DNA of 64,000 nucleotides, from assembly GCF_988242995.1 (NCBI RefSeq), contig NZ_OZ547043.1; one strand, 5' to 3'. A program made the translations under genes and the position numbers. The notes under the pieces were generated by a model. The model worked only from the letters and a program-made list of their open reading frames with translations, was not told the DNA's origin and did not search any database. Positions 5,106-63,891 of the stretch are shown here, in pieces (the stretch's first letter is position 1; every line of letters begins with the position of its first letter).

Positions 5106-6233
5106 TTAATATGTCTCACCCAACGCGATTTTTAAGCGATTTATCCAGCCACACAGCCCGCTCCATACCAGCAGATTAATAATCTGCGTTGATGATTTTT
5201 CGTGTTCGAGTAAAGGGCTGAACTGGGCGGCGCTAAAGCGATCGGGTGCTCGGGTCAGCCATTGTATCGCCTGAACGGTAGCGCGCTCAACAGAATGACG
5301 GTCAGCCCATTGGTTAATTTCATTTTCGCCCTTGCGCATAAGGGTGCTGATTTTTTTATATTCATTTGATGAATCCATACAGGTGGCAAAACAAGCAGGA
5401 CTGCCATTTATACGCGCGCATAACAACGCCGCAAGCTGATTATCCGGCTGTGTATTGACCCGTGTGCTGTTTAACAACTTTTCGAGAAGGGAAAGTGAAA
5501 TAGGGTGGAGAGAGAGTATTTCGGCCAGTTGGCAAAGTTCTGCAGTTGAACTTTTTGTGTGTTCTTCAGGTAGTTTTTCCACCTCATAGCTGCTTCGCCA
5601 GCGTAATGATTCATCAGCAAACAGTGACGCGTCGGCGTAGTTTTGTATCTCCAGACCGGGTAACCAGCGTACCGGATGCCCGAGATAAGCCTGAAATGTC
5701 GCAATTGACCGCGCCTGAAAGCCAATAAAACCAATGATTTGGTTAATGATTACACAGTCCCAGACAGTAAGACCGACGTCATTCAGATGCTGGCGCGATC
5801 GGTTGTCGATAATAGAAGGCGAGCTAGCCAGTTGGCGGGCATATTGCGTGATTTGTGCTAACCGATGATTACTTTCCCTGGAGGAATCAGGCCCGGGGAG
5901 CGGCGTAAGTCGCGCCGAATAGTAGTTACATAACCGCTGGACGCCGCAAACCTGAGCAACCGTCAGGGCAGTAGACAAGCGTTCATAAGCGGTGAAGGTC
6001 TGTGAACGGGTCACGGTAAGCTGGTCAGGGAATAACTCCGCTGCAAGAACGCGCGCCGGGACCAGCCATGAAAGGAAGGGGGCCAGCGTTTTTTCATCAA
6101 GGATCACGTCGAGCAGAAAGGGATCGCTAACCTTTGCGGCTTCCGGGACCAGAGGCAGAACGTCATTCTCCGTAGTACTGGATTGCGTTTCATGATACCA
6201 GTGGCTTTTGCCGGTGATGTGGCGTTGTTCCAT
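5106..6233 (-). CDS. yciW: YciW, putative oxidoreductase (carboxymuconolactone decarboxylase-like); start uncertain (ORF extends to 6311)
   Basis: 401-aa ORF; internal Met ([15 protein letters not shown]...) gives the ~375-aa form; conserved position between rnb and fabI. Confidence 0.75.
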
Positions 6234-6337
6234 GGGCGCTCCTTGGTCGTAAAGGAAATCGTTATCCTGACGCAAGGCGGGAAGGGGAGAAAGACGGATC
6301 GGCGATAACAAATATCAGAAAGGTATAACAGAGATAA

Positions 6338-6358
6338 CGGGCGGCAGAACGCCGCCCG
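6338..6358 (-). terminator. Candidate intrinsic terminator of fabI
   Basis: Stem CGGGCGGC/GCCGCCCG with 5-nt loop, 19 nt 3' of the fabI stop, followed on the minus strand by U-rich sequence. Confidence 0.45.
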
Positions 6359-6376
6359 TCTTGACCAACAGAACGA

Positions 6377-7165
6377 TTATTTCAGTTCGAGTTCGTTCAT
6401 TGCAGCGATGCTGAAACCGCCGTCAACGTGGACCACTTCACCGGAGATACCGGCAGAGAGATCGGAGCACAGGAATGCCGCAGAGTTACCCACATCTTCA
6501 ATGGTAACGGTACGGCGAATCGGGGTAACGGCTTCGCAATGAGCCAGCATTTTGCGGAAGTCTTTGATACCGGAAGCCGCCAGAGTACGGATCGGACCCG
6601 CAGAGATGGCGTTAACACGCACACCTTCCGGACCCATCGCGTTCGCCATATAGCGCACGTTTGCTTCCAGAGACGCTTTTGCCAGACCCATAACGTTGTA
6701 GTTCGGGATAGCGCGCTCAGCGCCAAGGTAGGAAAGGGTCAGCAGGGCAGAACCCGGATTCAGCATGGAGCGGCAAGCTTTTGCCATTGCAACGAAGCTG
6801 TAGGAGCTGATGTCGTGGGCAATTTTGAAGCCTTCACGGGTAACGGCATTAACATAGTCACCATCCAGCTGATCGCCAGGTGCAAAACCAATAGAGTGTA
6901 CGAAACCGTCAAATTTCGGCCAAACTTTCGCCAGTTCAGCGAACATGGTGTCGATGCTGGTATCTTCTGCAACATCGCACTGCAGAACGATGTCAGAACC
7001 CAATTGAGCGGCAAATTCTTCTACGCGGCCTTTCAGTTTGTCGTTCTGGTAGGTGAATGCCAGTTCAGCTCCTTCGCGGTGCATCGCCTGAGCGATACCG
7101 TAGGCGATGGACAGTTTGCTGGCAACACCGGTTACCAGAATGCGCTTACCGGAAAGAAAACCCAT
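6377..7165 (-). CDS. fabI: Enoyl-ACP reductase FabI, 262 aa
   Basis: 262-aa [59 protein letters not shown]... recognised as FabI. Confidence 0.95.
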
Positions 7166-7599
7166 AGCTTTAATCCTTATTGTTGATGCTTGTTGTGCCT
7201 GAAAATCAGGCGATTCGTCGTTTTAGTAAACAGTACGAACAGATAAACGGTTATTATAATCAACCTGGCTGTGGGTGGCTATAGTTGCGCTTTCTGTAGC
7301 GGAGAGAAGCTGCGGTACAGAGCATTTTGCGTTATCTACTCTTGACGCCTGCAAGGGGTAGGTTGGGGAAATATCTTATAGAATCTGACTCTGAAACTAT
7401 TCGTATTAGCTCCGATAAGTTTGATGATGAAAACAGAACTGGTGACAACAAGTAGCAGCCTTTCTGATGAATTGACCCCAACTTAATATTGTCAACTATC
7501 TTCACAGAATCTCCACAATCTCTTCATTATCAGAATATGCACCATGAATAAGATAAAAATACTTTCCATTACTTTGGAGAAACGTATAATCAGCAAAAA

Positions 7600-7617
7600 T
7601 GAGAACGATCATTCTCA
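7600..7617 (+). promoter_or_regulatory. Candidate promoter/operator of the TetR gene (TATAAT at 7585-7590, then imperfect palindrome TGAGAA-cgatca-TTCTCA)
   Basis: Seen in sequence: consensus -10 hexamer followed by an 18-bp imperfect inverted repeat 26 bp upstream of the ATG at 7643. Confidence 0.35.
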
Positions 7618-7642
7618 CCAAGTGATAGGCCAGGAGACAGAA

Positions 7643-8209
7643 ATGACCAGCAAACTGGAGATACGCCACAAACAGCGTCAGGATGAAATCATTAACGCCG
7701 CCCGTCGGTGTTTTCGTCGCTGCGGGTTTCATGCCGCCAGTATGTCGCAAATTGCCAGCGAAGCTCAGCTTAGCGTGGGTCAGATATATCGTTACTTCGC
7801 CAACAAAGACGCCATTATTGAAGAGATGGTTCGCCGTATCATCGACTTTCGTATTGCCCAAATGGACATTGACGCGCGTACCGATCACTTCCCGGAAGTC
7901 CTTGCCTTGCGTAAATCCTTAAATGAGGACGACGACGCGCTGATGCTGGAAGTGGCTGCAGAAGCCACACGCAATCCGCGGGTTATGGCAATGCTTGAAG
8001 AAGCTGACGCCAGAATGTTCGCTAACGGTTGTGCACATATGAAAAGAATGCATCCCCATCTTAGCGACGAGCACATTCGTTGCTGCGTTGAAGTGTTTGC
8101 TACCATGATGGAAGGTACGGTTTATCGTCGTTTAACACCGCAAAAAAGCGATCCACAACATCTGCAGGAAATATATCAGGATATTGTTAGTATGTTGATA
8201 AATAAATAA
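7643..8209 (+). CDS. TetR/AcrR-family transcriptional regulator (~188 aa)
   Basis: N-terminal TetR HTH (EIINAARRCFRRCGFHAASMSQIASEAQLSVGQIYRYFANKDAI); start chosen at ATG 7643 with GGAG Shine-Dalgarno 6 nt upstream rather than the unsupported ATG at 7544. Confidence 0.8.
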   Translation: MTSKLEIRHKQRQDEIINAARRCFRRCGFHAASMSQIASEAQLSVGQIYRYFANKDAIIEEMVRRIIDFRIAQMDIDARTDHFPEVLALRKSLNEDDDALMLEVAAEATRNPRVMAMLEEADARMFANGCAHMKRMHPHLSDEHIRCCVEVFATMMEGTVYRRLTPQKSDPQHLQEIYQDIVSMLINK

Positions 8210-8229
8210 GAACAGAATTAACCAATAGC

Positions 8230-8253
8230 GGGGGATATTAATCCCCCTTATTT
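8230..8253 (+). terminator. Intrinsic terminator after the TetR gene
   Basis: Stem GGGGGAT/ATCCCCC with ATTA loop followed by TTATTT. Confidence 0.6.
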
Positions 8254-8309
8254 CATTGCGAAATTCATTTCGCGATGCGGGTTCGTTATAACTGAATATC
8301 CCTGACATA

Positions 8310-8331
8310 TCCTCATTAATTTTAATGAGGA
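8310..8331 (+). promoter_or_regulatory. 22-bp perfect palindrome TCCTCATTAA-tt-TTAATGAGGA, candidate operator upstream of the efflux operon
   Basis: 10-bp perfect arms, 27 bp upstream of the MFP start codon and downstream of the TetR terminator. Confidence 0.4.
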
Positions 8332-8357
8332 GGGTATTTCTCACCCTGGAGAAAATA

Positions 8358-9479
8358 ATGAAGTATATAGCAACATCTGTAGTGGCAATGCTGCTCTTAT
8401 CTGGTTGTGATAATACGCAAAGTAACAATTCATCCCCGTCAGAAACAGAAGTCGGCGTTGTTACAGTCAAATCTCAACCGGTCTCGGTAGTCAGTGAATT
8501 AACCGGACGCACCAGTGCTGCGCTCAGTGCCGAAGTACGTCCGCAGGTTGGGGGAATTATCCAGAAACGCTTATTTAAGGAAGGTGATCTGGTCAAGGCT
8601 GGACAGCCGCTCTACCAGATTGATGCGGCCAGTTATCAGGCTGCATGGAATGAAGCTCGGGCAGCATTACAACAAGCACAGGCACTGGTAAAAGCCGATT
8701 GCCAGAAAGCGCAGCGTTATGCCCGACTGGTGAAAGAGAACGGTGTTTCACAACAGGATGCTGATGATGCTCAGTCTACCTGTGCACAAGATAAAGCCAG
8801 TGTAGAGGCGAAAAAAGCCGCACTGGAAACTGCGCGCATTAATCTTGACTGGACCACGGTAACCGCACCGATTTCAGGGCGCATTGGCATTTCGTCGGTA
8901 ACCCCTGGCGCACTGGTGACCGCGTCGCAAGATACAGCGTTAACGACTATTCGTGGTCTGGATACAATGTATGTCGACCTCACTCGCTCCAGTGTCGATT
9001 TATTACGTCTGCGTAAACAGTCACTGGCGACCAACAGTGACACCATGAGCGTCTCACTTATTCTGGAAGATGGCACAACCTACAGCGAAAAAGGGCGTCT
9101 GGAACTCACCGAAGTCGCTGTAGATGAGTCTACCGGTTCGGTGACATTACGGGCGATTTTCCCCAATCCACAACAGCAGTTATTACCGGGAATGTTTGTT
9201 CGCGCTCGTGTCGATGAAGGCGTGATGGAAGACGCTATTCTCGCGCCGCAACAGGGCGTCACGCGCGATGCTAAAGGCAATGCAACTGCGCTGGTGGTCA
9301 ATAAAGACAATAAAGTAGAGCAGCGAACGCTCGAAACGGGAGAAACGTATGGTGATAAATGGCTGGTGCTGAACGGCCTGCACAACGGCGACCGACTGAT
9401 TGTTGAAGGTTCTGCCAAAGTCACTTCAGGGCAGACCGTCAAGGCTGTTGAAGTTCAGGCTAATGGAGGCAACGCCTGA
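8358..9479 (+). CDS. RND efflux periplasmic adaptor (membrane fusion lipoprotein), ~373 aa
   Basis: Start ATG 8358 with GGAG Shine-Dalgarno; lipoprotein signal MKYIATSVVAMLLLSGC; HlyD/AcrA-like sequence; stop overlaps next start (TGATG). Confidence 0.8.
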   Translation: MKYIATSVVAMLLLSGCDNTQSNNSSPSETEVGVVTVKSQPVSVVSELTGRTSAALSAEVRPQVGGIIQKRLFKEGDLVKAGQPLYQIDAASYQAAWNEARAALQQAQALVKADCQKAQRYARLVKENGVSQQDADDAQSTCAQDKASVEAKKAALETARINLDWTTVTAPISGRIGISSVTPGALVTASQDTALTTIRGLDTMYVDLTRSSVDLLRLRKQSLATNSDTMSVSLILEDGTTYSEKGRLELTEVAVDESTGSVTLRAIFPNPQQQLLPGMFVRARVDEGVMEDAILAPQQGVTRDAKGNATALVVNKDNKVEQRTLETGETYGDKWLVLNGLHNGDRLIVEGSAKVTSGQTVKAVEVQANGGNA

Positions 9480-12400
9480 TGTTTTCGCGCTTTTTTGTTC
9501 GCCGCCCGGTCTTTGCCTGGGTTATCGCCATTTTGATTATGTTGGCGGGGATTCTGGCTATTCGCACATTGCCCGTCGCGCAATATCCTGACGTTGCGCC
9601 ACCGACCATTAAAATTTCAGCCACTTATACTGGTGCTTCTGCCGAAACGCTGGAGAACAGCGTGACTCAGGTTATCGAGCAACAACTCACTGGGCTTGAT
9701 AATTTACTCTATTTCAGCTCAACCAGCAGCTCTGATGGTTCGGTCAGTATTAATGTGACCTTTGAACAAGGTACCGATCCAGATACTGCACAGGTTCAGG
9801 TGCAGAATAAAATTCAGCAGGCGGAGTCGCGCCTACCCAGCGAAGTGCAGCAAACGGGTGTTACGGTGGAGAAATCACAAAGCAACTTTTTGCTGATTGC
9901 TGCCGTGTATGACACCACTGACAAAGCCTCCAGTTCGGATATCGCCGACTGGTTGGTTAGTAACGTTCAGGACCCACTTGCGCGTGTTGAAGGTGTGGGG
10001 AGTCTGCAAGTCTTTGGCGCGGAATACGCTATGCGCATCTGGCTTGACCCGGCCAAACTGGCGTCTTACTCGCTAATGCCTTCAGACGTGCAAAGTGCTA
10101 TTGAAGCGCAAAACGTGCAGGTTACTGCCGGGAAAATAGGGGCATTGCCTTCACCGAATACTCAGCAACTGACCGCAACGGTACGTGCGCAGTCTCGCTT
10201 GCAGACGGTGGATCAGTTCAAAAATATTATCGTGAAAAGCCAGTCAGACGGCGCAGTTGTTCGTATAAAAGATGTGGCTCGCGTTGAGATGGGCAGTGAA
10301 GATTATACCGCTATCGGCAAACTTAACGGTCACCCGTCTGCCGGGGTTGCTGTAATGCTTTCGCCCGGTGCGAATGCGCTGAATACGGCGACGCTGGTCA
10401 AGGATAAGATTGCCGAATTCCAGCGGAACATGCCGCAGGGATACGACATCGCATACCCGAAAGACAGCACTGAATTTATTAAAATCTCTGTAGAGGACGT
10501 AATTCAGACGCTGTTTGAAGCCATCGTATTGGTGGTTTGCGTGATGTATTTATTCCTGCAAAACCTGCGTGCCACACTGATTCCGGCGTTAGCTGTCCCC
10601 GTCGTTTTGCTGGGCACATTCGGCGTTCTTGCGTTGTTTGGCTATTCGATTAATACCCTGACGTTGTTTGCAATGGTGCTGGCGATCGGCTTGCTGGTGG
10701 ACGATGCCATTGTGGTGGTGGAGAACGTCGAACGCATTATGCGTGACGAAGGGTTGCCCGCGCGTGAAGCCACGGAAAAATCAATGGGCGAGATTTCTGG
10801 CGCACTGGTTGCCATTGCGCTGGTGTTGTCAGCCGTATTCCTGCCTATGGCCTTCTTTGGGGGATCTACGGGGGTAATTTATCGTCAGTTTTCGATAACC
10901 ATTATCTCCGCAATGCTGCTTTCCGTGGTAGTGGCATTGACCTTGACTCCCGCCCTGTGCGGTTCCGTCCTCCAGCATGTTCCGCCACATAAAAAAGGCT
11001 TTTTCGGCGCATTTAACCGCTTTTACCGCCGTACTGAAGATAAATATCAGCGAGGCGTAATTTATGTCCTGCGCCGTGCAGCCCGAACGATGGGGCTTTA
11101 TGTCGTGCTGGGTGGTGGAATGGCCCTGATGATGTGGAAACTGCCGGGCAGTTTCTTACCCACTGAAGACCAGGGCGAAATCATGGTGCAGTACACGCTG
11201 CCGGCTGGGGCGACCGCTGCCCGTACAGCAGAAGTGAATCGCCAGATTGTTGACTGGTTCCTGATTAACGAGAAAGCAAATACCGATGTCATCTTTACCG
11301 TTGATGGTTTCAGTTTTAGCGGTAGCGGACAGAACACCGGGATGGCGTTTGTTTCGTTGAAAAACTGGTCTCAACGTAAAGGGGCAGAAAACACCGCCCA
11401 GGCTATCGCCCTACGGGCAACCAAAGAGCTGGGCACAATTCGTGATGCCACGGTATTTGCGATGACGCCGCCAGCCGTTGATGGGCTGGGGCAAAGCAAT
11501 GGTTTTACGTTTGAATTGTTAGCTAACGGTGGAACCGATCGCGAAACACTACTGCAAATGCGTAATCAGTTGATAGAAAAAGCGAATCAAAGTCCGGAGT
11601 TACATTCTGTGCGTGCCAATGATTTGCCACAAATGCCGCAATTGCAGGTAGATATTGATAGTAATAAAGCGGTGTCATTAGGGTTGAGTTTGAATGATGT
11701 CACCGACACCCTGTCCAGTGCGTGGGGCGGTACTTATGTGAATGACTTTATTGACCGTGGTCGTGTGAAAAAAGTCTACATTCAGGGCGACAGTGAATTT
11801 CGTTCCGCGCCGTCAGACTTAGGTAAATGGTTTGTGCGCGGTAGCGATAACGCCATGACACCATTCTCTGCTTTTGCGACCACCCGCTGGCTGTATGGAC
11901 CGGAAAGACTGGTGCGCTACAACGGCTCGGCAGCCTATGAAATTCAGGGCGAAAACGCGACTGGCTTTAGTTCCGGCGATGCAATGACAAAAATGGAGGA
12001 ACTGGCAAACAGTCTTCCTGCGGGAACAACATGGGCCTGGAGTGGTTTGTCATTGCAGGAGAAACTGGCCAGCGGTCAGGCATTAAGTCTGTATGCAGTT
12101 TCTATTTTGGTGGTTTTCCTCTGCCTTGCAGCACTGTACGAAAGCTGGTCAGTCCCGTTCTCGGTCATTCTGGTGATCCCTCTGGGGCTTCTTGGCGCGG
12201 CGCTGGCGGCCTGGATGCGTGATTTAAACAACGACGTTTACTTCCAGGTAGCGCTATTAACTACTATCGGCTTGTCGTCGAAAAACGCCATTCTGATTGT
12301 GGAATTTGCTGAAGCGGCGGTTGCAGAGGGCTATTCCTTGAGTCGTGCGGCATTACGCGCGGCGCAGACTCGTTTACGCCCAATCATCATGACCTCGCTG

Positions 12401-12586
12401 GCGTTTATTGCGGGGGTAATGCCGCTGGCGATAGCAACCGGCGCAGGGGCGAACAGCCGCATCGCCATTGGTACGGGCATTATTGGCGGCACGCTGACCG
12501 CTACATTACTGGCCATTTTCTTCGTTCCTCTGTTTTTTGTACTGGTGAAACGTTTGTTTGCCGGTAAACCGCGCCGTCAGGAGTAA
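9479..12586 (+). CDS. RND (HAE1-family, AcrB/OqxB-like) inner-membrane efflux pump, 1035 aa
   Basis: 1035-aa ORF with hallmark RND N-terminus MFSRFFVRRPVFAWVIAILIMLAGILAIRTLPVAQYPDVAPPTI and conserved VDDAIVVVENVER motif. Confidence 0.9.
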   Translation: MFSRFFVRRPVFAWVIAILIMLAGILAIRTLPVAQYPDVAPPTIKISATYTGASAETLENSVTQVIEQQLTGLDNLLYFSSTSSSDGSVSINVTFEQGTDPDTAQVQVQNKIQQAESRLPSEVQQTGVTVEKSQSNFLLIAAVYDTTDKASSSDIADWLVSNVQDPLARVEGVGSLQVFGAEYAMRIWLDPAKLASYSLMPSDVQSAIEAQNVQVTAGKIGALPSPNTQQLTATVRAQSRLQTVDQFKNIIVKSQSDGAVVRIKDVARVEMGSEDYTAIGKLNGHPSAGVAVMLSPGANALNTATLVKDKIAEFQRNMPQGYDIAYPKDSTEFIKISVEDVIQTLFEAIVLVVCVMYLFLQNLRATLIPALAVPVVLLGTFGVLALFGYSINTLTLFAMVLAIGLLVDDAIVVVENVERIMRDEGLPAREATEKSMGEISGALVAIALVLSAVFLPMAFFGGSTGVIYRQFSITIISAMLLSVVVALTLTPALCGSVLQHVPPHKKGFFGAFNRFYRRTEDKYQRGVIYVLRRAARTMGLYVVLGGGMALMMWKLPGSFLPTEDQGEIMVQYTLPAGATAARTAEVNRQIVDWFLINEKANTDVIFTVDGFSFSGSGQNTGMAFVSLKNWSQRKGAENTAQAIALRATKELGTIRDATVFAMTPPAVDGLGQSNGFTFELLANGGTDRETLLQMRNQLIEKANQSPELHSVRANDLPQMPQLQVDIDSNKAVSLGLSLNDVTDTLSSAWGGTYVNDFIDRGRVKKVYIQGDSEFRSAPSDLGKWFVRGSDNAMTPFSAFATTRWLYGPERLVRYNGSAAYEIQGENATGFSSGDAMTKMEELANSLPAGTTWAWSGLSLQEKLASGQALSLYAVSILVVFLCLAALYESWSVPFSVILVIPLGLLGAALAAWMRDLNNDVYFQVALLTTIGLSSKNAILIVEFAEAAVAEGYSLSRAALRAAQTRLRPIIMTSLAFIAGVMPLAIATGAGANSRIAIGTGIIGGTLTATLLAIFFVPLFFVLVKRLFAGKPRRQE

Positions 12587-12589
12587 GTT

Positions 12590-13963
12590 ATGTTGCGTCG
12601 TTCTCTTATTTTTCTGGTGTTGTTGAGTGCGGGATGTGTCTCGCTCGATCCTCACTACAGTACGCCTGAATCCCCAATCCCGGCGACCTTGCCGGGAGCA
12701 CAGGGCCAGGGGAAGGCAATCAGCCATGACTGGCAGCAGGTGATCCACGATCCCCGATTGCAGCAGGTAGTAACCATTGCACTGAACAGTAACCGCGATG
12801 TGCAAAAAGCGATTGCTGATATTGACTCAGCACGGGCGCTCTATGGGCAAACTAATGCGTCGTTATTTCCGACGGTGAATGCGGCCTTAAGTTCGACTCG
12901 CAGTCGTTCGCTGGCGAATGGTACGGGAACAACTGCCGAGGCTGACGGCACGGTGTCCAGTTATACGTTAGATCTGTTTGGTCGTAATCAGAGTTTATCT
13001 CGGGCGGCGCGGGAAACCTGGCTTGCCAGTGAATTTACAGCCCAGAACACTCGTTTAACGCTGATTGCTGAAATCAGCACCGCCTGGCTGACACTGGCGG
13101 CTGATAACAGCAACCTGGCCCTGGCAAAAGAAACGATGGCCAGTGCAGAAAACTCATTGAAAATTATCCAGCGCCAGCAACAGGTTGGCACGGCGGCAGC
13201 GACAGATGTCAGTGAGGCGATGAGTGTTTATCAGCAAGCGCGCGCCAGCGTTGCCAGCTATCAGACACAAGTGATGCAGGATAAAAATGCGCTGAACTTA
13301 CTGGCAGGTACAACGCTTGCGGAAAATCTGCTACCGGGAACACTGGAAAGCCTGCCGGAACAAATGATAAGTCTGGTTCCTGCGGGAGTATCATCTGATG
13401 TTCTGCTGCGTCGCCCGGATATCCAGGAAGCGGAACATAATTTGAAGAGCGCCAATGCAGATATTGGCGCGGCGCGGGCTAACTTTTTCCCGACGATTTC
13501 GCTGACTGCCAGTGCCGGTGTTGGCAGTGACGCATTGTCGTCGTTGTTCAGCCACGGAATGCAGATCTGGTCATTTGCGCCATCGGTCACATTACCGCTG
13601 TTCACTGGCGGAAGTAATCTGGCGCAGCTTCGTTACGCAGAAGCACAAAAGCGTGGGCTCATTGCCACCTATGAAAAAACCGTTCAGACCGCATTTAAAG
13701 ATGTCGCTAACGGACTGGCGCGGCGGACCACGCTTGAAGAGCAACTGGATGCACAACGCCAGTATGTTAAAGCTGAGCAACAAACGGTCGATGTTGGCTT
13801 GCGTCGCTATCAGGCGGGTGTTGGTGATTACCTGACCGTGTTGACGGCGCAGCGCAGCTTGTGGATCGCACAGCAGGAGCTGCTGGCACTGCAACTGACT
13901 GATTTTACAAACCGAATCACGCTCTGGCAGTCGCTGGGCGGCGGCATGTCATCACTCAAGTAA
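12590..13963 (+). CDS. Outer-membrane efflux lipoprotein (NodT/OprM family), 457 aa
   Basis: Lipobox LLSAGC in signal peptide; starts 4 nt after the RND stop; TolC/OprM-like length and repeats. Confidence 0.85.
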   Translation: MLRRSLIFLVLLSAGCVSLDPHYSTPESPIPATLPGAQGQGKAISHDWQQVIHDPRLQQVVTIALNSNRDVQKAIADIDSARALYGQTNASLFPTVNAALSSTRSRSLANGTGTTAEADGTVSSYTLDLFGRNQSLSRAARETWLASEFTAQNTRLTLIAEISTAWLTLAADNSNLALAKETMASAENSLKIIQRQQQVGTAAATDVSEAMSVYQQARASVASYQTQVMQDKNALNLLAGTTLAENLLPGTLESLPEQMISLVPAGVSSDVLLRRPDIQEAEHNLKSANADIGAARANFFPTISLTASAGVGSDALSSLFSHGMQIWSFAPSVTLPLFTGGSNLAQLRYAEAQKRGLIATYEKTVQTAFKDVANGLARRTTLEEQLDAQRQYVKAEQQTVDVGLRRYQAGVGDYLTVLTAQRSLWIAQQELLALQLTDFTNRITLWQSLGGGMSSLK

Positions 13964-13971
13964 GGAATAAT

Positions 13972-15135
13972 ATGGCTAGAGTCTCTCTTTCATGGGCATT
14001 GATTCTTGGTCTTTTAGCCGGTATAGGCCCGATGTGTACCGATCTTTATTTGCCGGCTTTGCCGGAGATGTCTGAGCAACTGGCGGCAACCACGACCATA
14101 ACGCAATTAACCCTGACCGCATCACTGATCGGTCTTGGCGTCGGACAACTGTTATTTGGCCCTCTGAGCGACAAAATAGGGCGTAAACGTCCGTTAATCT
14201 TGTCGTTGCTATTGTTTATTGTTTCTTCCATTTTGTGCGCGACAACGAACAATATTTACTGGCTGGTGGTCTGGCGTTTTATTCAAGGGATCGCGGGGGC
14301 GGGTGGTTCGGTGCTCTCTCGTTCTATTGCTCGTGACAAATATCAGGGAGTAACGTTGACCCAGTTTTTTGCGCTGTTAATGACGGTGAATGGCCTGGCA
14401 CCGGTGTTGTCGCCAGTGCTGGGCGGGTACATTGTTAGCACTTTTGACTGGCGCACTTTATTCTGGGTAATGGCTGAAATTAGCACCGTATTGTTGCTGG
14501 GCTGCGTGTTATTTATTAATGAGACCTTGCCAGAAAATAAAAGGGGCTCATCATTGCTATTAACCGGACGAAGCGTGGTGCAGAACCGCCGTTTTATGCG
14601 CTTTTGCCTGATTCAAAGTTTTATGCTGGCAGGCTTGTTTGCATATATCGGCTCTTCGTCGTTCGTGTTGCAGAAGGAATTTGGCTTTAGTCCAATGCAA
14701 TTTAGCCTGGTGTTTGGCCTTAACGGCATCGGACTTATCATTGCTTCATGGATCTTTTCGCGCCTGGCTCGACGGATTAACGCGATGACATTGTTGCGAG
14801 GTGGCCTGATAGCGGCAATTTTGTGTGCATTGCTCACGGTCTTATGCGCATGGATACAATTGCCCATTCCGGCACTGGTGGCATTATTTTTCACCATCGC
14901 ATTTTGTAGCGGCATCGGCACTGTTGGCGGGGCAGAGGCTATGAGTGCAGTAGGGACGCAGGAATCTGGAACGGCGTCTGCGTTGATGGGGATGAGCATG
15001 TTTGTCTTCGGCGGTATAGCCGCGCCATTGTCGGGAATTGGCGGAGAAACACTGTTAAAAATGAGTCTGGCAATTACGGTGTGTTATACGCTGGCATTGC
15101 TGGTTGCTCTCACCAGAATCGACAATCAAAAGTAA
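13972..15135 (+). CDS. MFS (DHA1, Bcr/CflA-like) transporter, 387 aa
   Basis: 387-aa hydrophobic ORF with MFS motif GPLSDKIGRKRP; tightly coupled to the upstream OMP gene. Confidence 0.8.
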   Translation: MARVSLSWALILGLLAGIGPMCTDLYLPALPEMSEQLAATTTITQLTLTASLIGLGVGQLLFGPLSDKIGRKRPLILSLLLFIVSSILCATTNNIYWLVVWRFIQGIAGAGGSVLSRSIARDKYQGVTLTQFFALLMTVNGLAPVLSPVLGGYIVSTFDWRTLFWVMAEISTVLLLGCVLFINETLPENKRGSSLLLTGRSVVQNRRFMRFCLIQSFMLAGLFAYIGSSSFVLQKEFGFSPMQFSLVFGLNGIGLIIASWIFSRLARRINAMTLLRGGLIAAILCALLTVLCAWIQLPIPALVALFFTIAFCSGIGTVGGAEAMSAVGTQESGTASALMGMSMFVFGGIAAPLSGIGGETLLKMSLAITVCYTLALLVALTRIDNQK

Positions 15136-15139
15136 TGAA

Positions 15140-15177
15140 CACCTCATCCTGAGGGGGGCCCCTGTCAGGATGAGGTG
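15140..15177. terminator. Long perfect hairpin between the convergent MFS gene and sapF (probable bidirectional terminator)
   Basis: CACCTCATCCTGA...TCAGGATGAGGTG 13-bp perfect arms around a GC-rich centre; lies in the 49-bp gap between convergent stops. Confidence 0.5.
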
Positions 15178-15184
15178 CAAAGCA

Positions 15185-15991
15185 CTAACGGTCCTTACGC
15201 CACGCATCCGCCGTCAATGCCTCGCCAAAATGACCGGCGATCAGCCGTTTGGTGAGTTCATGCAGCGGCGATGCCAGCACATCGGCGGTGCTGCCTCGCT
15301 CGACAACCTCGCCCTGATGCATCACCAGCACCTGGTCGCTAATGTGCTTCATCATTCCGATATGCTGGGTAACATAAATATACGAAATGCCCTGTTTTTC
15401 CTGTAACTCAAGCATCAGATTAATCAACTGCGAACGCATCGACATATCCAGTGAGGCGAGGGCTTCATCGGCAATAATGACTTTTGGGCGCAATATCAGC
15501 GCGCGCGCCAGCCCCAGACGCTGTTTTTGCCCGGGTGCCAACATATGCGGATAGTAACTGACGTGATCCGGTAGCAGCCCAACCATACGCATCGTTTCAA
15601 TAATCTGTTTGCGACGCTGTTCCGGTTCCAGGTCGGTGTTCAGACGCAGTGGAAAATCCAGGATTTGCGAGATACGTTGACGGGGATTCAACGATGTCGA
15701 AGGATCCTGAAAAATCATGCGAATACGCTGACTACGGAAGGAATAATCGCCAAAATGCAGCGGATGATCGTCAATTAATAACTCGCCGCTGGTAGGTTCT
15801 ATCATTCCCGCCAGCATTTTTGCCAGCGTGGATTTACCCGAACCATTCTCGCCAATAATCGCCAGTGTCTGGCCTTCACGTAGCGTAAAGCTCAAGGGTT
15901 TTACCGCTTCTACGGTCTGACGACGAAACCAACCGGTCCGGTAGCGGAACGTTTTACTTAAATTACGCACTTCAAGCAGCGTTTCGATCAT
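15185..15991 (-). CDS. sapF: Peptide ABC transporter ATP-binding protein SapF, 268 aa
   Basis: Walker A GENGSGKST, ABC signature; fifth gene of the sapABCDF operon. Confidence 0.9.
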   Translation of the reverse strand: MIETLLEVRNLSKTFRYRTGWFRRQTVEAVKPLSFTLREGQTLAIIGENGSGKSTLAKMLAGMIEPTSGELLIDDHPLHFGDYSFRSQRIRMIFQDPSTSLNPRQRISQILDFPLRLNTDLEPEQRRKQIIETMRMVGLLPDHVSYYPHMLAPGQKQRLGLARALILRPKVIIADEALASLDMSMRSQLINLMLELQEKQGISYIYVTQHIGMMKHISDQVLVMHQGEVVERGSTADVLASPLHELTKRLIAGHFGEALTADAWRKDR

Positions 15992-15992
15992 C

Positions 15993-16985
15993 TCATTCTT
16001 TCTCCATGTTCAGCGGGAAATGACAGGCATAGAGATGATTTTTCGCCCCCGTCAAACGTGGCGTCACAATGCATTCTCGTTGTGCATACGGGCAACGCGG
16101 CCCCAGACGACACCCAATCGGTAACTGTTCCAGCAGTGGGATAGCGCCGGGCAGCGTATTGAGGCGACTTTTATGCGGCATCGCGCTGCCGAAGTCTGGT
16201 ATCGCGCGGATCAGCGCCTGGGTATAAGGATGATGTGGCATTGTCACCAACTCCTTACTTGGCGCGGTTTCCACCGTTTGACCGCAGTAAAGCACGTTAA
16301 TTTTATCCGCCCATTGGCTAAGCATTTGTAAGTCATGGCTGATAAGCAAAATAGTGGTATTGCTGTTTTGGTTGAGACGCGTCAGGAGGCGAAAGATTTG
16401 CGCCTGGGTTGTTGGCTCCATTGAGTTTGTCGGTTCGTCAGCAATCAGCAGACGCGGTTGATTCGCCAGTGCAATGGCTATCATCACTTTCTGACATTCA
16501 CCTTCGGTCAACTCATAGGGAAAACTGCGCATCGCATCTTTGTGATCTTTAATCCCCACGCGGTGCAGCAGTTCAATGGCACGGCGTTTGCGCCAGCCAA
16601 AACGCTGCCACCAACGGCCTTTATAGGTCCAGGCTGGGATGTTTTGCATCAACTGGCGACCCACACGTTCTGAAGGATCAAGACACGACTGCGGTTCCTG
16701 GAAAATCATCGACACGTTGTGACCTACCAGCTTGCGCCGTTCGCGTGCGGAGAGACGCAGCAAATCGATATCATCAAAACGCATACGGTCAGCAGTAACA
16801 CGCCAGTTATCTTTATTCACCCCACAAATCGCTTTCGCAATCAAACTTTTGCCGGAACCTGATTCGCCAACAAGACCGCGGATTTCACCTTCGGTTAAGG
16901 TCATACTTACGCGGTCGACGGCTTTAACCCACTCATCACCGGTTTTAAATTCAATGGTCAGGTTACGAATATCGAGTAATGGCAT
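15993..16985 (-). CDS. sapD: Peptide ABC transporter ATP-binding protein SapD, 330 aa
   Basis: Walker A GESGSGKS; operon context. Confidence 0.9.
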
Positions 16986-30047: not shown

Positions 30048-30655
30048 TAGCCCAACGCAATAATGTCTGATGCGCTGCGCTTATCAGGCCTGCAAACGAC
30101 GTATTGATTATGTATGCCGGACAAAGCATTCTGAACTGCACCCCAAATGTTGGACATAATCTGACATCTGAAGGTGCAGTTTATGAAACATTCATTTGAA
30201 GTAAAACTTGCCGCTGTAAATCATTACCTGGCTGGTCATGCAGGCATCATTTCTACGGCAAAACTCTTTCAACTTTCTCACACCAGCCTCTCACACTGGA
30301 TTAATCTTTTTCTTCTTCACGGTCCTCGGGCACTGGATTGCAGACACAAGCGTAGCTATTCTCCTGAAGATAAACTTTGCGTGGTTCTTTATGCTCTCGG
30401 GCATTCTGAGTCTCTACCCCGGGTAGCTGCCCGGTTTAACATTCCCAGCCACAACACGGTTAAAAACTGGATAAAAGGCTACCGCAAATCTGGTAATGAG
30501 GCCTTTATCAGGCGCAGGAAGGAGAAAAGCATGACCCGTTCTGATGATACCCATGAAAACGAGGCAAACATGACGCCGGAAGAGATGAAGAATGAGCTGC
30601 GTTATCTTCGCGCAGAAAATGCATATCTGAAAGCCATGCAGGAGCATCTCCTGGA

Positions 30656-31563
<908 letters not shown>

Positions 31564-34356: not shown

Positions 34357-34671
34357 ATGTTTAAAAAAGGCTTACTTGCTCTGACACTGGTGTTTTCACT
34401 GCCCGTTTTCGCCGCTGAACACTGGATCGATGTTCGTGTTCCAGAGCAGTATCAGCAAGAGCACGTTCAGGGGGCCATCAATATTCCCCTGAAGGAAGTA
34501 AAAGAGCGCATTGCCACCGCCGTTTCGGATAAAAACGACACCGTGAAAGTGTATTGCAATGCCGGACGCCAGTCAGGGCAGGCAAAAGAGATCCTTAGCG
34601 AGATGGGATATACTCACGTTGAGAACGCCGGTGGCCTGAAAGACATCGCAATGCCGAAGGTCAAAGGTTAA
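34357..34671 (+). CDS. pspE: Thiosulfate sulfurtransferase (rhodanese) PspE, 104 aa
   Basis: Signal peptide plus rhodanese active-site region (VKVYCNAGRQS). Confidence 0.9.
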   Translation: MFKKGLLALTLVFSLPVFAAEHWIDVRVPEQYQQEHVQGAINIPLKEVKERIATAVSDKNDTVKVYCNAGRQSGQAKEILSEMGYTHVENAGGLKDIAMPKVKG

Positions 34672-34713
34672 CAAATTACTTATTGAGCGGTGTAAACAAC
34701 GCCGCTTATTCAT

Positions 34714-34739
34714 TTGATAAATCAAAATTAACCCACATT
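34714..34739 (+). promoter_or_regulatory. Candidate sigma-32 (heat-shock) promoter of ycjX
   Basis: TTGATAA ... CCCACATT resembles the sigma-32 consensus (TTGAAA / CCCCATnT) ~50 bp upstream of ycjX; spacing approximate. Confidence 0.35.
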
Positions 34740-34789
34740 ATTATCTCCAGTATCTAATCCTTTCTACAGCTTTCTGGCACAGGACAGCA

Positions 34790-55788: not shown

Positions 55789-55795
55789 AACTGCA

Positions 55796-55890
55796 TAAAA
55801 AAATAGAGCCTGTCGACATCCGCCAGACTCTACAGTACACACAGCAGTGCATCCTCGTCTTAAATCCGGCCTGGTCTCCTCTGTGCCGGT
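55796..55890 (-). ncRNA. mcaS: McaS (IsrA) small regulatory RNA, ~95 nt
   Basis: Minus-strand sequence ACCGGCACAGAGGAGACCAGGCCGGAUUUAAGACGAGGAUGCACUGCUGUGUGUACUGUAGAGUCUGGCGGAUGUCGACAGGCUCUAUUUUUUUAU with GGA motifs and intrinsic terminator, in the abgR-smrA intergenic region. Confidence 0.8.
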
Positions 55891-59267: not shown

Positions 59268-59389
59268 GCAGGTGAATGCAACGTCAAGCGATGGGCGTTG
59301 CGCTCCATATTGTCTTACTTCCTTTTTTGAATTACTGCATAGCACAATTGATTCGTACGACGCCGACTTTGATGAGTCGGCTTTTTTTT
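59268..59389 (+). ncRNA. fnrS: FnrS small regulatory RNA, 122 nt
   Basis: GCAGGUGAAUGCAACGUCAAGCGAUGGGCGUUGCGCUCCAUAUUGUCUUACUUCCUUUUUUGAAUUACUGCAUAGCACAAUUGAUUCGUACGACGCCGACUUUGAUGAGUCGGCUUUUUUUU with terminator hairpin and U8 tract, between zntB and dbpA. Confidence 0.85.
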
Positions 59390-62138: not shown

Positions 62139-63374
62139 CTACGATAACCGCGCATTCAACATGGCTATCTGTTCGTCGTTCATGTCATCAATCCACATAC
62201 CGTAAATTTCATACACCATCTGCGCAGTTTCATGCCCCATTTGGCTGGCTATAAATGCCGGGTTCGCTCCTGCCGTCAACAGCCAGCAGGCAAAAGTATG
62301 CCGCGTATGGTACGGATTACGGCGGCGAATACCAGCACGTTTTACTGCTGCATTCCACCTTGCCCCCAAACTGCTTACCGAGTAATAAGGTTTTTGTTTT
62401 CCGTTACACACCCTGGGCATGAAAACAAAATGCAGTTTTTGCTTTTCGGTTCTGCCGTACTCCCGATGATAAAAGGTGATTTCGCTTTTGCGATGATGCC
62501 CGGTCAGTTTGTATTGCTCCTTCAGTGCTTCAAGAGCAGGCTGCAGTAGTGTTACTGTTCGGATCCCGGCATTTGTTTTTGGGGGACCGAACATATCAAG
62601 TATCGTCAGGTTTCTTCTGACATTCACTATTCCCTTTTCGAGATCCACATCCTCCCACGCCAGAGCTGCCAGTTCCCCGTGACGAAGTCCTGAGTAAACG
62701 GCAAATTTCCACAAGTTCTGGCTCTGTCCTTTTTCACTTTCCATTAATGCATTGAATTCTGTTTTAGATAACGGATCAGGCTTTATTCTGTTTCGCTGTA
62801 ATTTTTTTACTCCTTCAAATGGTTTGGTTGATATAAATCCCGACTGATACGCAAAACGCAACAGCGAACAGAGCAGGGCGATATAGTTATCAACTGTGCG
62901 CACGGTTCTTCCTTTTTTGTTGGATCTTGGATTATCCAGGTAAAGCGTTTCTCCATGCAGCAGTTCATTCCGGTAGTTTAAGATATCGCTATAACGAATA
63001 TGTGATATCGGGGTACTTTCACAAATTATTATTCTGAGTGTTTTTAATTGTGATTTCGTTTTCTTCATTGTGTTTGTTGTTAACTCTGTCTCTTTAATTT
63101 TTGTCCAGATATCACAAAGCTCTCCGAACGTTTTTATGACTCTCGTTGTCACCATTTTTGCCCCAGTGCTGGACTGGGGAAAACGTCTTAAATACTCAAA
63201 TTCACCGGAGTTTATTTCATGAACTATCAGCGCTCTTAAATTTCCGGCCTTTTTAATATTACTGTTTGTAATCTCCCAGCCTTTTAATGTTTCCCGACAT
63301 CGTTTTCCTCGAAACATGAACCAGATGCGAATGTATCTACCTCTAATCTCGACACCTGTTGGTAATTTAGACAT
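62139..63374 (-). CDS. intR: Rac-like prophage integrase (tyrosine recombinase), 411 aa
   Basis: Tyrosine recombinase C-terminal region (HTRHTFACWLLTAGANPAFIASQMGHETAQMVYEIYGMW); AT-rich; immediately next to the ttcA 5' end. Confidence 0.88.
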   Translation of the reverse strand: MSKLPTGVEIRGRYIRIWFMFRGKRCRETLKGWEITNSNIKKAGNLRALIVHEINSGEFEYLRRFPQSSTGAKMVTTRVIKTFGELCDIWTKIKETELTTNTMKKTKSQLKTLRIIICESTPISHIRYSDILNYRNELLHGETLYLDNPRSNKKGRTVRTVDNYIALLCSLLRFAYQSGFISTKPFEGVKKLQRNRIKPDPLSKTEFNALMESEKGQSQNLWKFAVYSGLRHGELAALAWEDVDLEKGIVNVRRNLTILDMFGPPKTNAGIRTVTLLQPALEALKEQYKLTGHHRKSEITFYHREYGRTEKQKLHFVFMPRVCNGKQKPYYSVSSLGARWNAAVKRAGIRRRNPYHTRHTFACWLLTAGANPAFIASQMGHETAQMVYEIYGMWIDDMNDEQIAMLNARLS

Positions 63375-63669: not shown

Positions 63670-63891
63670 TTAATTTGAATACAATGCAATTCTCGAGGAC
63701 TGAAGTTTCTCGCAATTAAAATTTATCAGTTTTACTTTCTGCTCTCTGGAAACGCCTGCTTCTTTTTTACCTGAGAGCATTTTTTCGCATTCTGATTTCG
63801 TTAGTTTAGATTTTGAATATCTTGTCCAGTTAGTAGGAGTGCCACCTTCCTTTTCAATAGTGGCGGTAATTTTATACATGAACACCTCCAT
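63670..63891 (-). CDS. ydaC: Rac-like prophage small protein YdaC (DUF1187); start approximate
   Basis: MEVFMYKITATIEKEGGTPTNWTRYSKSKLTKSECEKMLSGKKEAGVSREQKVKLINFNCEKLQ...; the ORF track has an N-terminal extension. Confidence 0.65.
   Translation of the reverse strand: MEVFMYKITATIEKEGGTPTNWTRYSKSKLTKSECEKMLSGKKEAGVSREQKVKLINFNCEKLQSSRIALYSN

Follow-up and report, generated by a model that had tools for sequence, protein, structure and literature searches.

The chromosomal eefRABCD efflux operon between fabI and sapF of Escherichia coli, with a putative structured leader ahead of eefA

To characterize the region between fabI and sapF, we analyzed a stretch of 64,000 nucleotides (contig NZ_OZ547043.1 of RefSeq assembly GCF_988242995.1; the whole stretch is referred to as the window), which was assigned to Escherichia coli by megablast. 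Five intact, co-oriented genes lie on the + strand between these two core genes (Table 1), and encode a TetR-family regulator (EefR), an adaptor lipoprotein (EefA), a resistance-nodulation-division (RND) pump (EefB), an outer-membrane factor (EefC) and an exporter of the major facilitator superfamily (MFS; EefD). Protein families were assigned by NCBIfam profiles that scored above their curated cut-offs. Such a TetR-regulated RND and MFS module had been proposed from the letters alone, and the open reading frames (ORFs), the NCBIfam profiles and the Pfam TetR_N match now bear this out. In the ORF list for 4.5–18.5 kb and upon re-translation, the five frames contained 0 internal stops, such that the frameshifts or premature stops that would have undone the proposal were not seen, and all five genes are of the same length as the RefSeq coding sequences. 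The transporter genes are closely coupled: eefA and eefB overlap by 1 nt (TGATG), while gaps of 3 nt and 8 nt separate eefB from eefC and eefC from eefD, respectively. The overlap was thus correctly called in the original prediction, while its gaps of 4–9 nt were close to the real values. The GC content of the module is 0.48–0.54 and, in the comparison with flanking core genes that had been advised, both GC and GC at third codon positions (GC3) of its genes resembled those of the flanks. Only the regulatory region, at approximately 7200–8700, is AT-rich (GC of 0.43–0.47, as compared to 0.50 for the whole window), which would be compatible with binding of H-NS but should not be considered evidence for it.

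The region can be recognized as the chromosomal eefRABCD operon of E. coli, a single transcription unit repressed by EefR and encoding both a tripartite RND pump and an MFS exporter, a reading to which we assign a probability of roughly 90%. This identity is based on published primers that map to the region, on the sequence of strain ATCC 25922, on an exact match to the operator, and on a position between fabI and sapF and a gene set that are the same as in RefSeq. All 10 of the 10 primers in Table S2 of Pugh et al. (PMC12817139) map to the expected gene boundaries, with 0–2 differences, and ATCC 25922 is 98.9% identical to the 7852-bp module at the nucleotide level over 100% of its length (>97% in the paper). 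The alleles closest to the window are, however, those of EFF60, 7/2 and others, at 99.8%, rather than that of ATCC 25922. The E. coli operon has been characterized by Shen et al. in Virulence in 2025 (PMC12482432) and by Pugh et al. in Microbial Genomics in 2026 (PMC12817139), both of which attribute the name eefRABCD to the 2008 genome paper on strain SMS-3-5. Relative to the operon described there, the position, the order of the five genes, the operator and the proton-relay positions are alike, with no difference of substance. The locus is therefore already published and experimentally dissected; the observation is real but not new, and the earlier statement that substrate range and regulation are unknown is outdated, as both have been studied experimentally (PMC12482432, PMC12817139). 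In what follows, operator binding, autorepression, co-transcription, de-repression, minimal inhibitory concentrations (MICs) raised 4–32-fold in AcrB-deficient hosts and ethidium efflux are taken from the literature, while identity, intactness, prevalence, junctions and orthology were addressed here.

Table 1. Features of the eef locus and its flanks. Positions refer to the window.
Feature	Position	Strand	Description
fabI	6377..7165	-	Left core flank, divergent from the module; NF005938 equivalog, 594 bits vs cut-off of 477; RefSeq annotation of near-identical strain 7/2
fabI promoter-like site	7253..7281	-	TAGCCA-17-TATAAT from consensus scan; wholly within the segment shared with K-12; putative promoter
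eef-specific haplotype segment	7289..15139	+	Stands in for the ~600-bp ycjD segment of K-12; blastn of K-12 fabI-sapF matches the flanks only
PeefR sigma-70 promoter	7563..7590	+	TTTCCA-16-TATAAT; 10/12 in consensus scan; both hexamers kept across genera
EefR operator TGAGAACGATCATTCTCA	7600..7617	+	18-bp palindrome directly downstream of the -10 box; exact match, validated by electrophoretic mobility shift assay (EMSA) in PMC12482432
eefR	7643..8209	+	TetR-family autorepressor, 188 aa; Pfam TetR_N PF00440, E = 2e-15; GGAG Shine-Dalgarno motif 6 nt upstream; RefSeq start
eefR-eefA intercistronic leader	8210..8357	+	148 nt, four hairpins; function predicted
H1	8230-8235/8242-8247	+	Followed by U-rich tract
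H2	8254-8262/8269-8277	+	Hairpin stem
H3	8310-8316/8325-8331	+	Hairpin stem
H4	8332-8334/8344-8346	+	Adjoins the eefA Shine-Dalgarno motif
eefA	8358..9479	+	Periplasmic adaptor lipoprotein, 373 aa; TIGR01730, 276 bits vs 95; primer exact at 8358
eefB	9479..12586	+	HAE1-type RND permease, 1035 aa; TIGR00915, 1553 bits vs 940; NF000282, 1501 vs 1250
eefC	12590..13963	+	NodT/OprM-type outer-membrane factor lipoprotein, 457 aa; TIGR01845, 374 bits vs 210
eefD	13972..15135	+	12-transmembrane-helix DHA1 Bcr/CflA-type MFS exporter, 387 aa; TIGR00710, 282 bits vs 201; published primers match
eefD-sapF convergent hairpin	15140..15177	.	13-bp stem (CACCTCATCCTGA / TCAGGATGAGGTG), 12-nt loop; read from sequence
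sapF	15185..15991	-	Right core flank, convergent with the module; NF011692 equivalog, 589 bits vs cut-off of 452

The four transporter proteins each present the signature of their family. EefA begins with the signal peptide MKYIATSVVAMLLLSGC and contains an LSGC lipobox with the cysteine at position 17; a GGAG motif precedes the ATG at 8358, and RefSeq uses the same start. A longer adaptor ORF from 8325 was rejected, as it begins inside H3 and as the Shine-Dalgarno motif and RefSeq favor 8358. The published eefB deletion primers match the window exactly, and the proton-relay residues D408, D409, K935 and T972 are all present in EefB, in line with the reported conservation of these residues (PMC12817139). 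Identification of EefB as AcrB, AcrD or OqxB was rejected, with scores below the equivalog cut-offs (1380 vs 2150, 1409 vs 1854 and 845 vs 2200 bits, respectively), and, likewise, all scores for OqxAB, AcrAB, AcrD and MdtEF fell under the curated cut-offs. The N-terminus of EefC reads MLRRSLIFLVLLSAGC-VSLDPHY, with a signal peptide that ends in LLSAGC; EefC is probably lipidated at this site, where the serine at position -3 is non-canonical. EefD scored below the equivalog cut-offs for TcaB (316 vs 475 bits) and Bcr (229 vs 303 bits). It contains the MFS motif A, GPLSDKIGRK, at residues 63–72, while no match to the strict motif C pattern G...GP..GG was seen in this protein, and its nearest solved structures are EmrD and MdfA. 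Beyond eefD, the hairpin facing sapF is likely a bidirectional terminator; the hairpin that precedes sapF in K-12 has near-identical arms and a different loop.

For eefR, a longer TetR ORF from 7544 (221 aa) was rejected, since the extension would take in the conserved promoter and operator, a GGAG motif precedes the ATG at 7643 and RefSeq uses 7643. The C-terminal domain of EefR gave only weak matches, to TetR_C_6 and TetR_C_31, and among solved structures UidR comes nearest (E = 1e-12). As UidR is too distant and the C-terminal Pfam matches are weak, inference of a ligand was dropped. A fragment of ~316 bp upstream of eefR was reported to drive a green fluorescent protein reporter and to be repressed by EefR, which in EMSA binds the palindrome, with single-base changes abolishing binding (PMC12482432). 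We derived the same palindrome independently, as the element that stayed invariant when the regions ahead of eefR in seven loci, representing five genera, were aligned. The operator TGAGAACGATCATTCTCA is unique in the 64-kb window, no second operator being found at up to 3 mismatches in the spacer or in the rest of the window, and occurs in one copy per eefR-bearing locus in six genera, as well as in Klebsiella pneumoniae. Reverse-transcription PCR (RT-PCR) spanning every intergenic junction showed the five genes to be co-transcribed from the eefR promoter, and deletion of eefR raised eefA, eefB, eefC and eefD transcripts 83-, 28-, 43- and 27-fold, respectively, by quantitative RT-PCR, while no other RND system responded to EefR loss in RNA sequencing (PMC12482432). 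The homologue of eefR in Enterobacter cloacae also encodes a TetR repressor, the deletion of which lifts eefA more than 70-fold (PMC7365913).

The module is found at the same fabI/sapF position in E. albertii, E. whittamii and a cryptic-clade Escherichia, at 94–98% amino acid identity, and therefore predates E. coli. Full eefRABCD sets were found in Citrobacter koseri, C. amalonaticus, Kluyvera and Pseudocitrobacter, while Enterobacter, Lelliottia and Dryocola carry eefRABC without eefD. It should be noted that a scan of contigs for peptide patterns missed Klebsiella and Enterobacter, the loci of which came from mislabelled PLSDB records. K. pneumoniae presents eefABCD with the eefR ORF deleted, while the promoter, a perfect operator (TGAGAATGATCATTCTCA) and the leader are kept directly upstream of eefA (locus extract 5640-5910). 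In K. aerogenes, eefR and eefD are both missing, as are the -10 box and the greater part of the operator (locus extract 5700-5900). The eef genes of K. aerogenes are reported to be silenced by H-NS, and losses such as these would fit with their silence. By tblastn, the E. coli proteins are 77.5–79% (EefA), ~80–89% (EefB, the K. aerogenes assembly being fragmented) and 55–80% by fragment (EefC) identical to their counterparts in K. pneumoniae and K. aerogenes, EefR is 68% identical to its E. cloacae homologue, and the MFS gene of K. pneumoniae is 70% identical to EefD. Across the Enterobacteriaceae genera compared, EefB is 86–91% identical, and Shen et al. listed identities to the Klebsiella-type Eef proteins of 78.1% for EefA, 87.3% for EefB and 74.9% for EefC (PMC12482432). 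As these values are far above the ~57% identity of EefB to AcrB and MexB (PMC12817139), we consider the Klebsiella-type proteins to be orthologues. The resemblance to eefABC that the original prediction had noted, without being able to confirm it, is thus borne out (78–80%, 86–89% and ~76% for EefA, EefB and EefC, relative to the K. pneumoniae, K. aerogenes and E. cloacae loci), while that to oqxAB is not, as is taken up below. Pugh et al. termed the Enterobacter operon "not homologous" (PMC12817139), which, judging from identities of 68–88%, does not hold at the protein level. On the same comparison of sequences, the five-gene unit is ancestral across the Enterobacteriaceae, with Klebsiella having deleted eefR, and control by EefR, which Shen et al. 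termed a lineage-specific adaptation, is better read as the ancestral state.

One element of the locus, namely the spacer between eefR and eefA, is possibly new. Its fold has a z-score of -4.2, and RNAalifold analysis of seven sequences yielded four helices with compensatory changes in 15 of the 25 pairs. In this alignment, 93% of the cells were paired, as compared to 81% in shuffles and 50–59% with slid partners, while the 15 pairs that changed on both sides compare to 7.8 ± 1.7 in shuffles (0 of 500 reached 15) and 1–5 with slid partners. A covariance model built from the seven-sequence alignment found exactly one match in each of 15 eef loci from some nine genera, in every case immediately ahead of eefA, while neither K-12 nor the RND loci of more remote kinship gave a match. 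When all 15 sequences were aligned, 17 of the 25 pairs covaried and 92.6% of the cells were paired, although this alignment was fitted to the model, which favors structure. No Rfam match to the regulatory region or the spacer was obtained at E ≤ 1. The first hairpin, H1, looks like a leaky terminator. In Escherichia sp. MOD1-EC7003, a repeat of ~124 bp resembling the enterobacterial repetitive intergenic consensus lies between the eefR stop and H1, with the leader intact downstream (locus extract ~8610-8735); a sequence similar to this repeat is also found upstream of eefR in the same strain.

Combining the published experiments with the features listed in Table 1, the operon would be expected to function as follows. 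A single sigma-70 promoter (7563-7590) drives all five genes, and EefR, bound to the palindrome at 7600-7617, which overlaps the region of the transcription start, represses eefR itself along with the four transporter genes almost completely. Upon loss or inactivation of EefR, presumably also upon ligand binding, two transporters would be made. EefA as adaptor, EefB as proton-driven pump and EefC as OprM-like channel would form a tripartite pump, by which amphiphilic compounds leave the cell across the outer membrane, while EefD, as a 12-helix MFS antiporter, would move its substrates from the cytoplasm across the inner membrane. The 148-nt spacer may tune the ratio of repressor to pump, via partial termination at H1 and/or via messenger stability and translation, and the native substrate may well differ from the drugs that were assayed. 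In terms of phenotype, loss of EefR is reported to render AcrB-deficient cells multidrug-resistant. Plasmid-borne eefABC in a delta-acrB host raised the MICs of sanguinarine, tetracycline, erythromycin, chloramphenicol, clindamycin and fusidic acid 8–32-fold, while plasmid-borne eefD (pBReefD, as compared to pBReefABC) raised the MICs of the same drugs 2–4-fold, with EefD and EefABC showing no synergy toward the drugs assayed (PMC12482432). Export of ethidium and rhodamine 6G was shown by Pugh et al. (PMC12817139).

This picture of a repressed two-transporter operon has some weaknesses that need to be considered. We know of no inducing ligand of EefR. The covariation of the spacer was sampled in only ~9 genera, the larger alignment, of 15 sequences, came from fitting to the model and the role of the spacer hairpins is purely predicted. 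The drug phenotypes, moreover, conflict, with Pugh et al. seeing only dye effects and unchanged antibiotic MICs (PMC12817139) and Shen et al. seeing the 8–32-fold changes given above (PMC12482432), and the phenotypes require either an AcrB-deficient background or overexpression. Finally, deletion in wild-type ATCC 25922 had no MIC phenotype (PMC12817139), such that the natural role of the operon may lie elsewhere than in drug efflux.

In the alternative that fares best, the real task of the operon is physiological, be it the export of a host-derived or endogenous metabolite or fitness in acid or during gut colonization, with drug efflux being a side effect of overexpression and the MFS and RND transporters acting as a two-step relay from the cytoplasm to the periplasm and on to the outside. 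We consider the chances of this to be not far short of even. Deletions of eefB, eefABC or eefD in ATCC 25922 left the MICs of antibiotics, bile salts and metals unchanged, and the operon is phylogroup-confined and strongly conserved (PMC12817139), an all-or-none pattern that our counts confirm, with at least 80% of the module present in 2037 of the 2043 carriers. A K. pneumoniae eefA mutant is described as weak in gut colonization and acid tolerance, as cited in PMC12817139 and PMC7365913. The linkage of eefD, kept in Escherichia, C. koseri, C. amalonaticus, Kluyvera, Pseudocitrobacter and K. pneumoniae, suggests functional coupling. Against this alternative, Enterobacter, Lelliottia, Dryocola and K. 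aerogenes have lost eefD and yet retained eefABC, and Shen et al. saw EefD and EefABC act without synergy on the drugs that they assayed (PMC12482432). In addition, no natural substrate or inducer has been identified, and the flanking genes vary among genera, such that no linked pathway indicates a substrate.

Given these conflicting phenotypes, the leader deserves particular attention. Shen et al. used the 148-bp spacer as a non-specific competitor in EMSA, meaning that it is not bound by EefR, and they also reported sequence upstream of eefA to be needed for the phenotypes of plasmid-borne eefAB, eefABC and eefABCD, for which they speculated on promoter elements (PMC12482432). Pugh et al., on the other hand, cloned eefABC from its ATG without the leader, and antibiotic MICs were unchanged (PMC12817139). 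As the clones of Pugh et al. lacked the leader and those of Shen et al. required upstream sequence, the leader could be a candidate explanation for the conflict, a proposal that we infer from these designs. Tentatively, and with the odds rather against it, we suggest that the spacer is an undescribed cis-acting RNA of the Enterobacteriaceae that sets the yield of pump per repressor transcript, whether by partial termination, by processing or stabilization, or by occlusion of the eefA ribosome-binding site.

The same spacer might instead separate two units, with eefR ending at its own terminator and eefABCD forming a second operon with a promoter in the 148 bp, as would agree with the terminator-like hairpin and T-rich tail at 8230-8247, the stem of which is kept by compensatory changes, and with the need of Shen et al. 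for sequence upstream of eefA (PMC12482432). We find this unlikely, as RT-PCR runs across eefR-eefA and eefA to eefD rise 27–83-fold on eefR deletion, as the sole operator in the window lies upstream of eefR and EefR does not bind the spacer (PMC12482432), as a consensus scan of 8210-8357 revealed no sigma-70-like site on the + strand, and as K. pneumoniae, lacking the eefR ORF, keeps PeefR, the operator and the leader directly upstream of eefA. The original prediction that the TetR gene has both its own promoter and its own terminator thus holds for the promoter but not for a full terminator, in light of the five-gene co-transcription.

The single operon replaces ycjD in a strain-variable manner, as had been suspected from the gene order of K-12; strain MG1655 indeed carries only ycjD between fabI and sapF (fabI-ycjD-sapF). 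Among 5426 complete E. coli genomes, the eef module was found in 2043 (~38%) and the ycjD segment in 3377, such that the two haplotypes, which together account for 5420 of the 5426, are almost perfectly complementary; by megablast, the whole fabI-to-sapF query was covered in 2037 genomes. According to Pugh et al., the operon does not occur outside phylogroups B2, D, E, F and G, and equals acrAB-tolC in conservation (PMC12817139). Homology to K-12 stops at 7288, 7 bp past the -35-like hexamer of fabI, and restarts at the sapF stop codon, at 15186. When remnants of eef were sought in the K-12 ycjD segment (blastn, word size of 7), only chance matches were obtained, all with E ≥ 0.96, and the "fragment conservation" in Fig. 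3 of PMC12817139 was not reproduced by blastn of that segment. The junctions are identical in three ycjD haplotypes (K-12, Q65 and HH97), and most differences among these are indels in repeats resembling repetitive extragenic palindromic elements; the Q65 haplotype, with a ycjD that is 12 nt longer, is ~92% identical to that of K-12, and in HH97 ycjD is frameshifted. At 7190-7245 and 7322-7475 of its locus extract, the K-12 ycjD segment contains a GC-rich palindromic repeat that occurs elsewhere in every E. coli genome, at a median of 4 places, as well as a duplicated fragment of the 3' end of ycjD. While two or three independent losses of eef have been proposed (PMC12817139), the shared breakpoints argue against independent losses, as separate deletions would not each create the same ycjD-bearing segment. 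One ancient replacement, followed by exchange of haplotypes through homologous recombination, would be more parsimonious. At the right-hand junction, the last codons and stop of sapF differ synonymously from those of K-12 (AAG GAC CGT TAG vs AAA GAT CGC TAA; window 15185-15197 vs K-12 locus extract 7829-7841). Because the differences in the last four sapF codons plus stop are only synonymous, the haplotype boundary would seem to lie slightly within sapF, a few codons from its end. Relative to strain 7/2, identity is 99.8% in the eef region (6300-16000) but only 99.1% over the initial 30 kb of the window taken together (1-30147), which suggests mosaic, recombined ancestry around the locus.

That the module is a mobile island, recently acquired by pathogenic lineages at the fabI-sapF site and able to spread on plasmids, is very improbable: although neither K-12 nor phylogroups A, B1 and C carry it, its location varies between genera, its closest structural relatives are of the Pseudomonas MexAB-OprM type, with lateral transfer suggested by Pugh et al. 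(PMC12817139), and five plasmid-borne copies are reported by Shen et al. (PMC12482432), the occupation of the same site in other Escherichia at 94–98% amino acid identity, a GC and GC3 like those of flanking core genes, junctions without integrase, insertion sequence (IS) or repeat boundaries, and the nature of the "plasmid" records examined speak against it. Of these records, NZ_CP141085.1 and CP054253.1, listed as plasmids in PLSDB/GenBank, contain pyrF-rnb-fabI-eef-sapFDCBA-psp in chromosomal order, and are non-mobilizable with no replicon listed, while NZ_CP134663.1, labelled as an E. coli plasmid, is a 4.9-Mb record. Plasmid carriage was therefore rejected for the three records examined, which, with their chromosomal flanks and essential genes, are mislabelled chromosome sequence. 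In NZ_CP141085.1 and CP054253.1, ymjA lies directly before pspF and the puu cluster is absent.

Other features of the window should be mentioned. IS1397, of the IS3 family, is found at 30132-31563 between puuE and pspF, and occupies the same site in the opposite orientation in strain 7/2 (NZ_CP023820.1). At 34671-34777, pspE is directly followed by ycjX, the ~14-kb ycjM-ycjN-O-P-Q-R-S-T-pgmB-ycjV-ompG-ycjW stretch that is present in K-12 and strain 7/2 being absent; this pspE-ycjX junction is found in 372 of the 5426 complete genomes, including strains 042 and PCN033. Three small RNAs passed the Rfam gathering score, namely McaS (55795-55890, -), FnrS (59268-59385, +) and RalA (63695-63873, +). 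As RalA adjoins an integrase-like ORF (62139-63374, -), this suggests that the window ends inside a Rac-type prophage.

The eef operon is the seventh RND pump of E. coli, one that is not found in K-12 but is present in most extra-intestinal pathogenic and enterohaemorrhagic lineages, and constitutes a latent means of multidrug resistance for cells in which AcrB has been lost or is inhibited, as published in 2025–2026. Our additions are modest, and consist of a candidate explanation of the conflicting phenotypes by RNA structure, a pair of haplotypes with identical breakpoints, and corrections regarding plasmid carriage and the Enterobacter homology. If the reading of the leader is true, it could explain why the two published studies disagree.

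Compared with known systems, among the closest are the EefABC pumps of Klebsiella and Enterobacter, which belong to an orthologous family and share the structured leader, with the same promoter and operator in E. cloacae and K. pneumoniae. Their site differs from that in E. coli, being bounded upstream by a GNAT gene and downstream by murQP or yicS; in Klebsiella, Kluyvera and Pseudocitrobacter, the loci lie between the GNAT gene and murQP, a context unlike that between fabI and sapF. The gene content differs as well, as the E. cloacae locus (ECL_00056-eefABC) lacks eefD and K. pneumoniae lacks the eefR ORF. OqxAB is also an RND pump with its adaptor and is likewise accessory in E. coli, yet it has neither a cognate outer-membrane factor nor an MFS gene, and membership of eef in this group was rejected on the basis of the scores for OqxB, given above, and OqxA (180 vs 835 bits). 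MexAB-OprM of Pseudomonas aeruginosa and AcrAB-TolC share the tripartite HAE1 RND build, the proton-relay residues and the lipoprotein adaptor, although the eef proteins score below the NCBIfam equivalog cut-offs for MexA, AcrA, AcrB and AcrD. Like MexAB-OprM, the eef operon encodes its own OprM-type lipoprotein channel. Its regulator, however, is an upstream, co-transcribed TetR gene, whereas AcrR and MexR are divergent, and to the tripartite pump eef adds a co-transcribed MFS pump.

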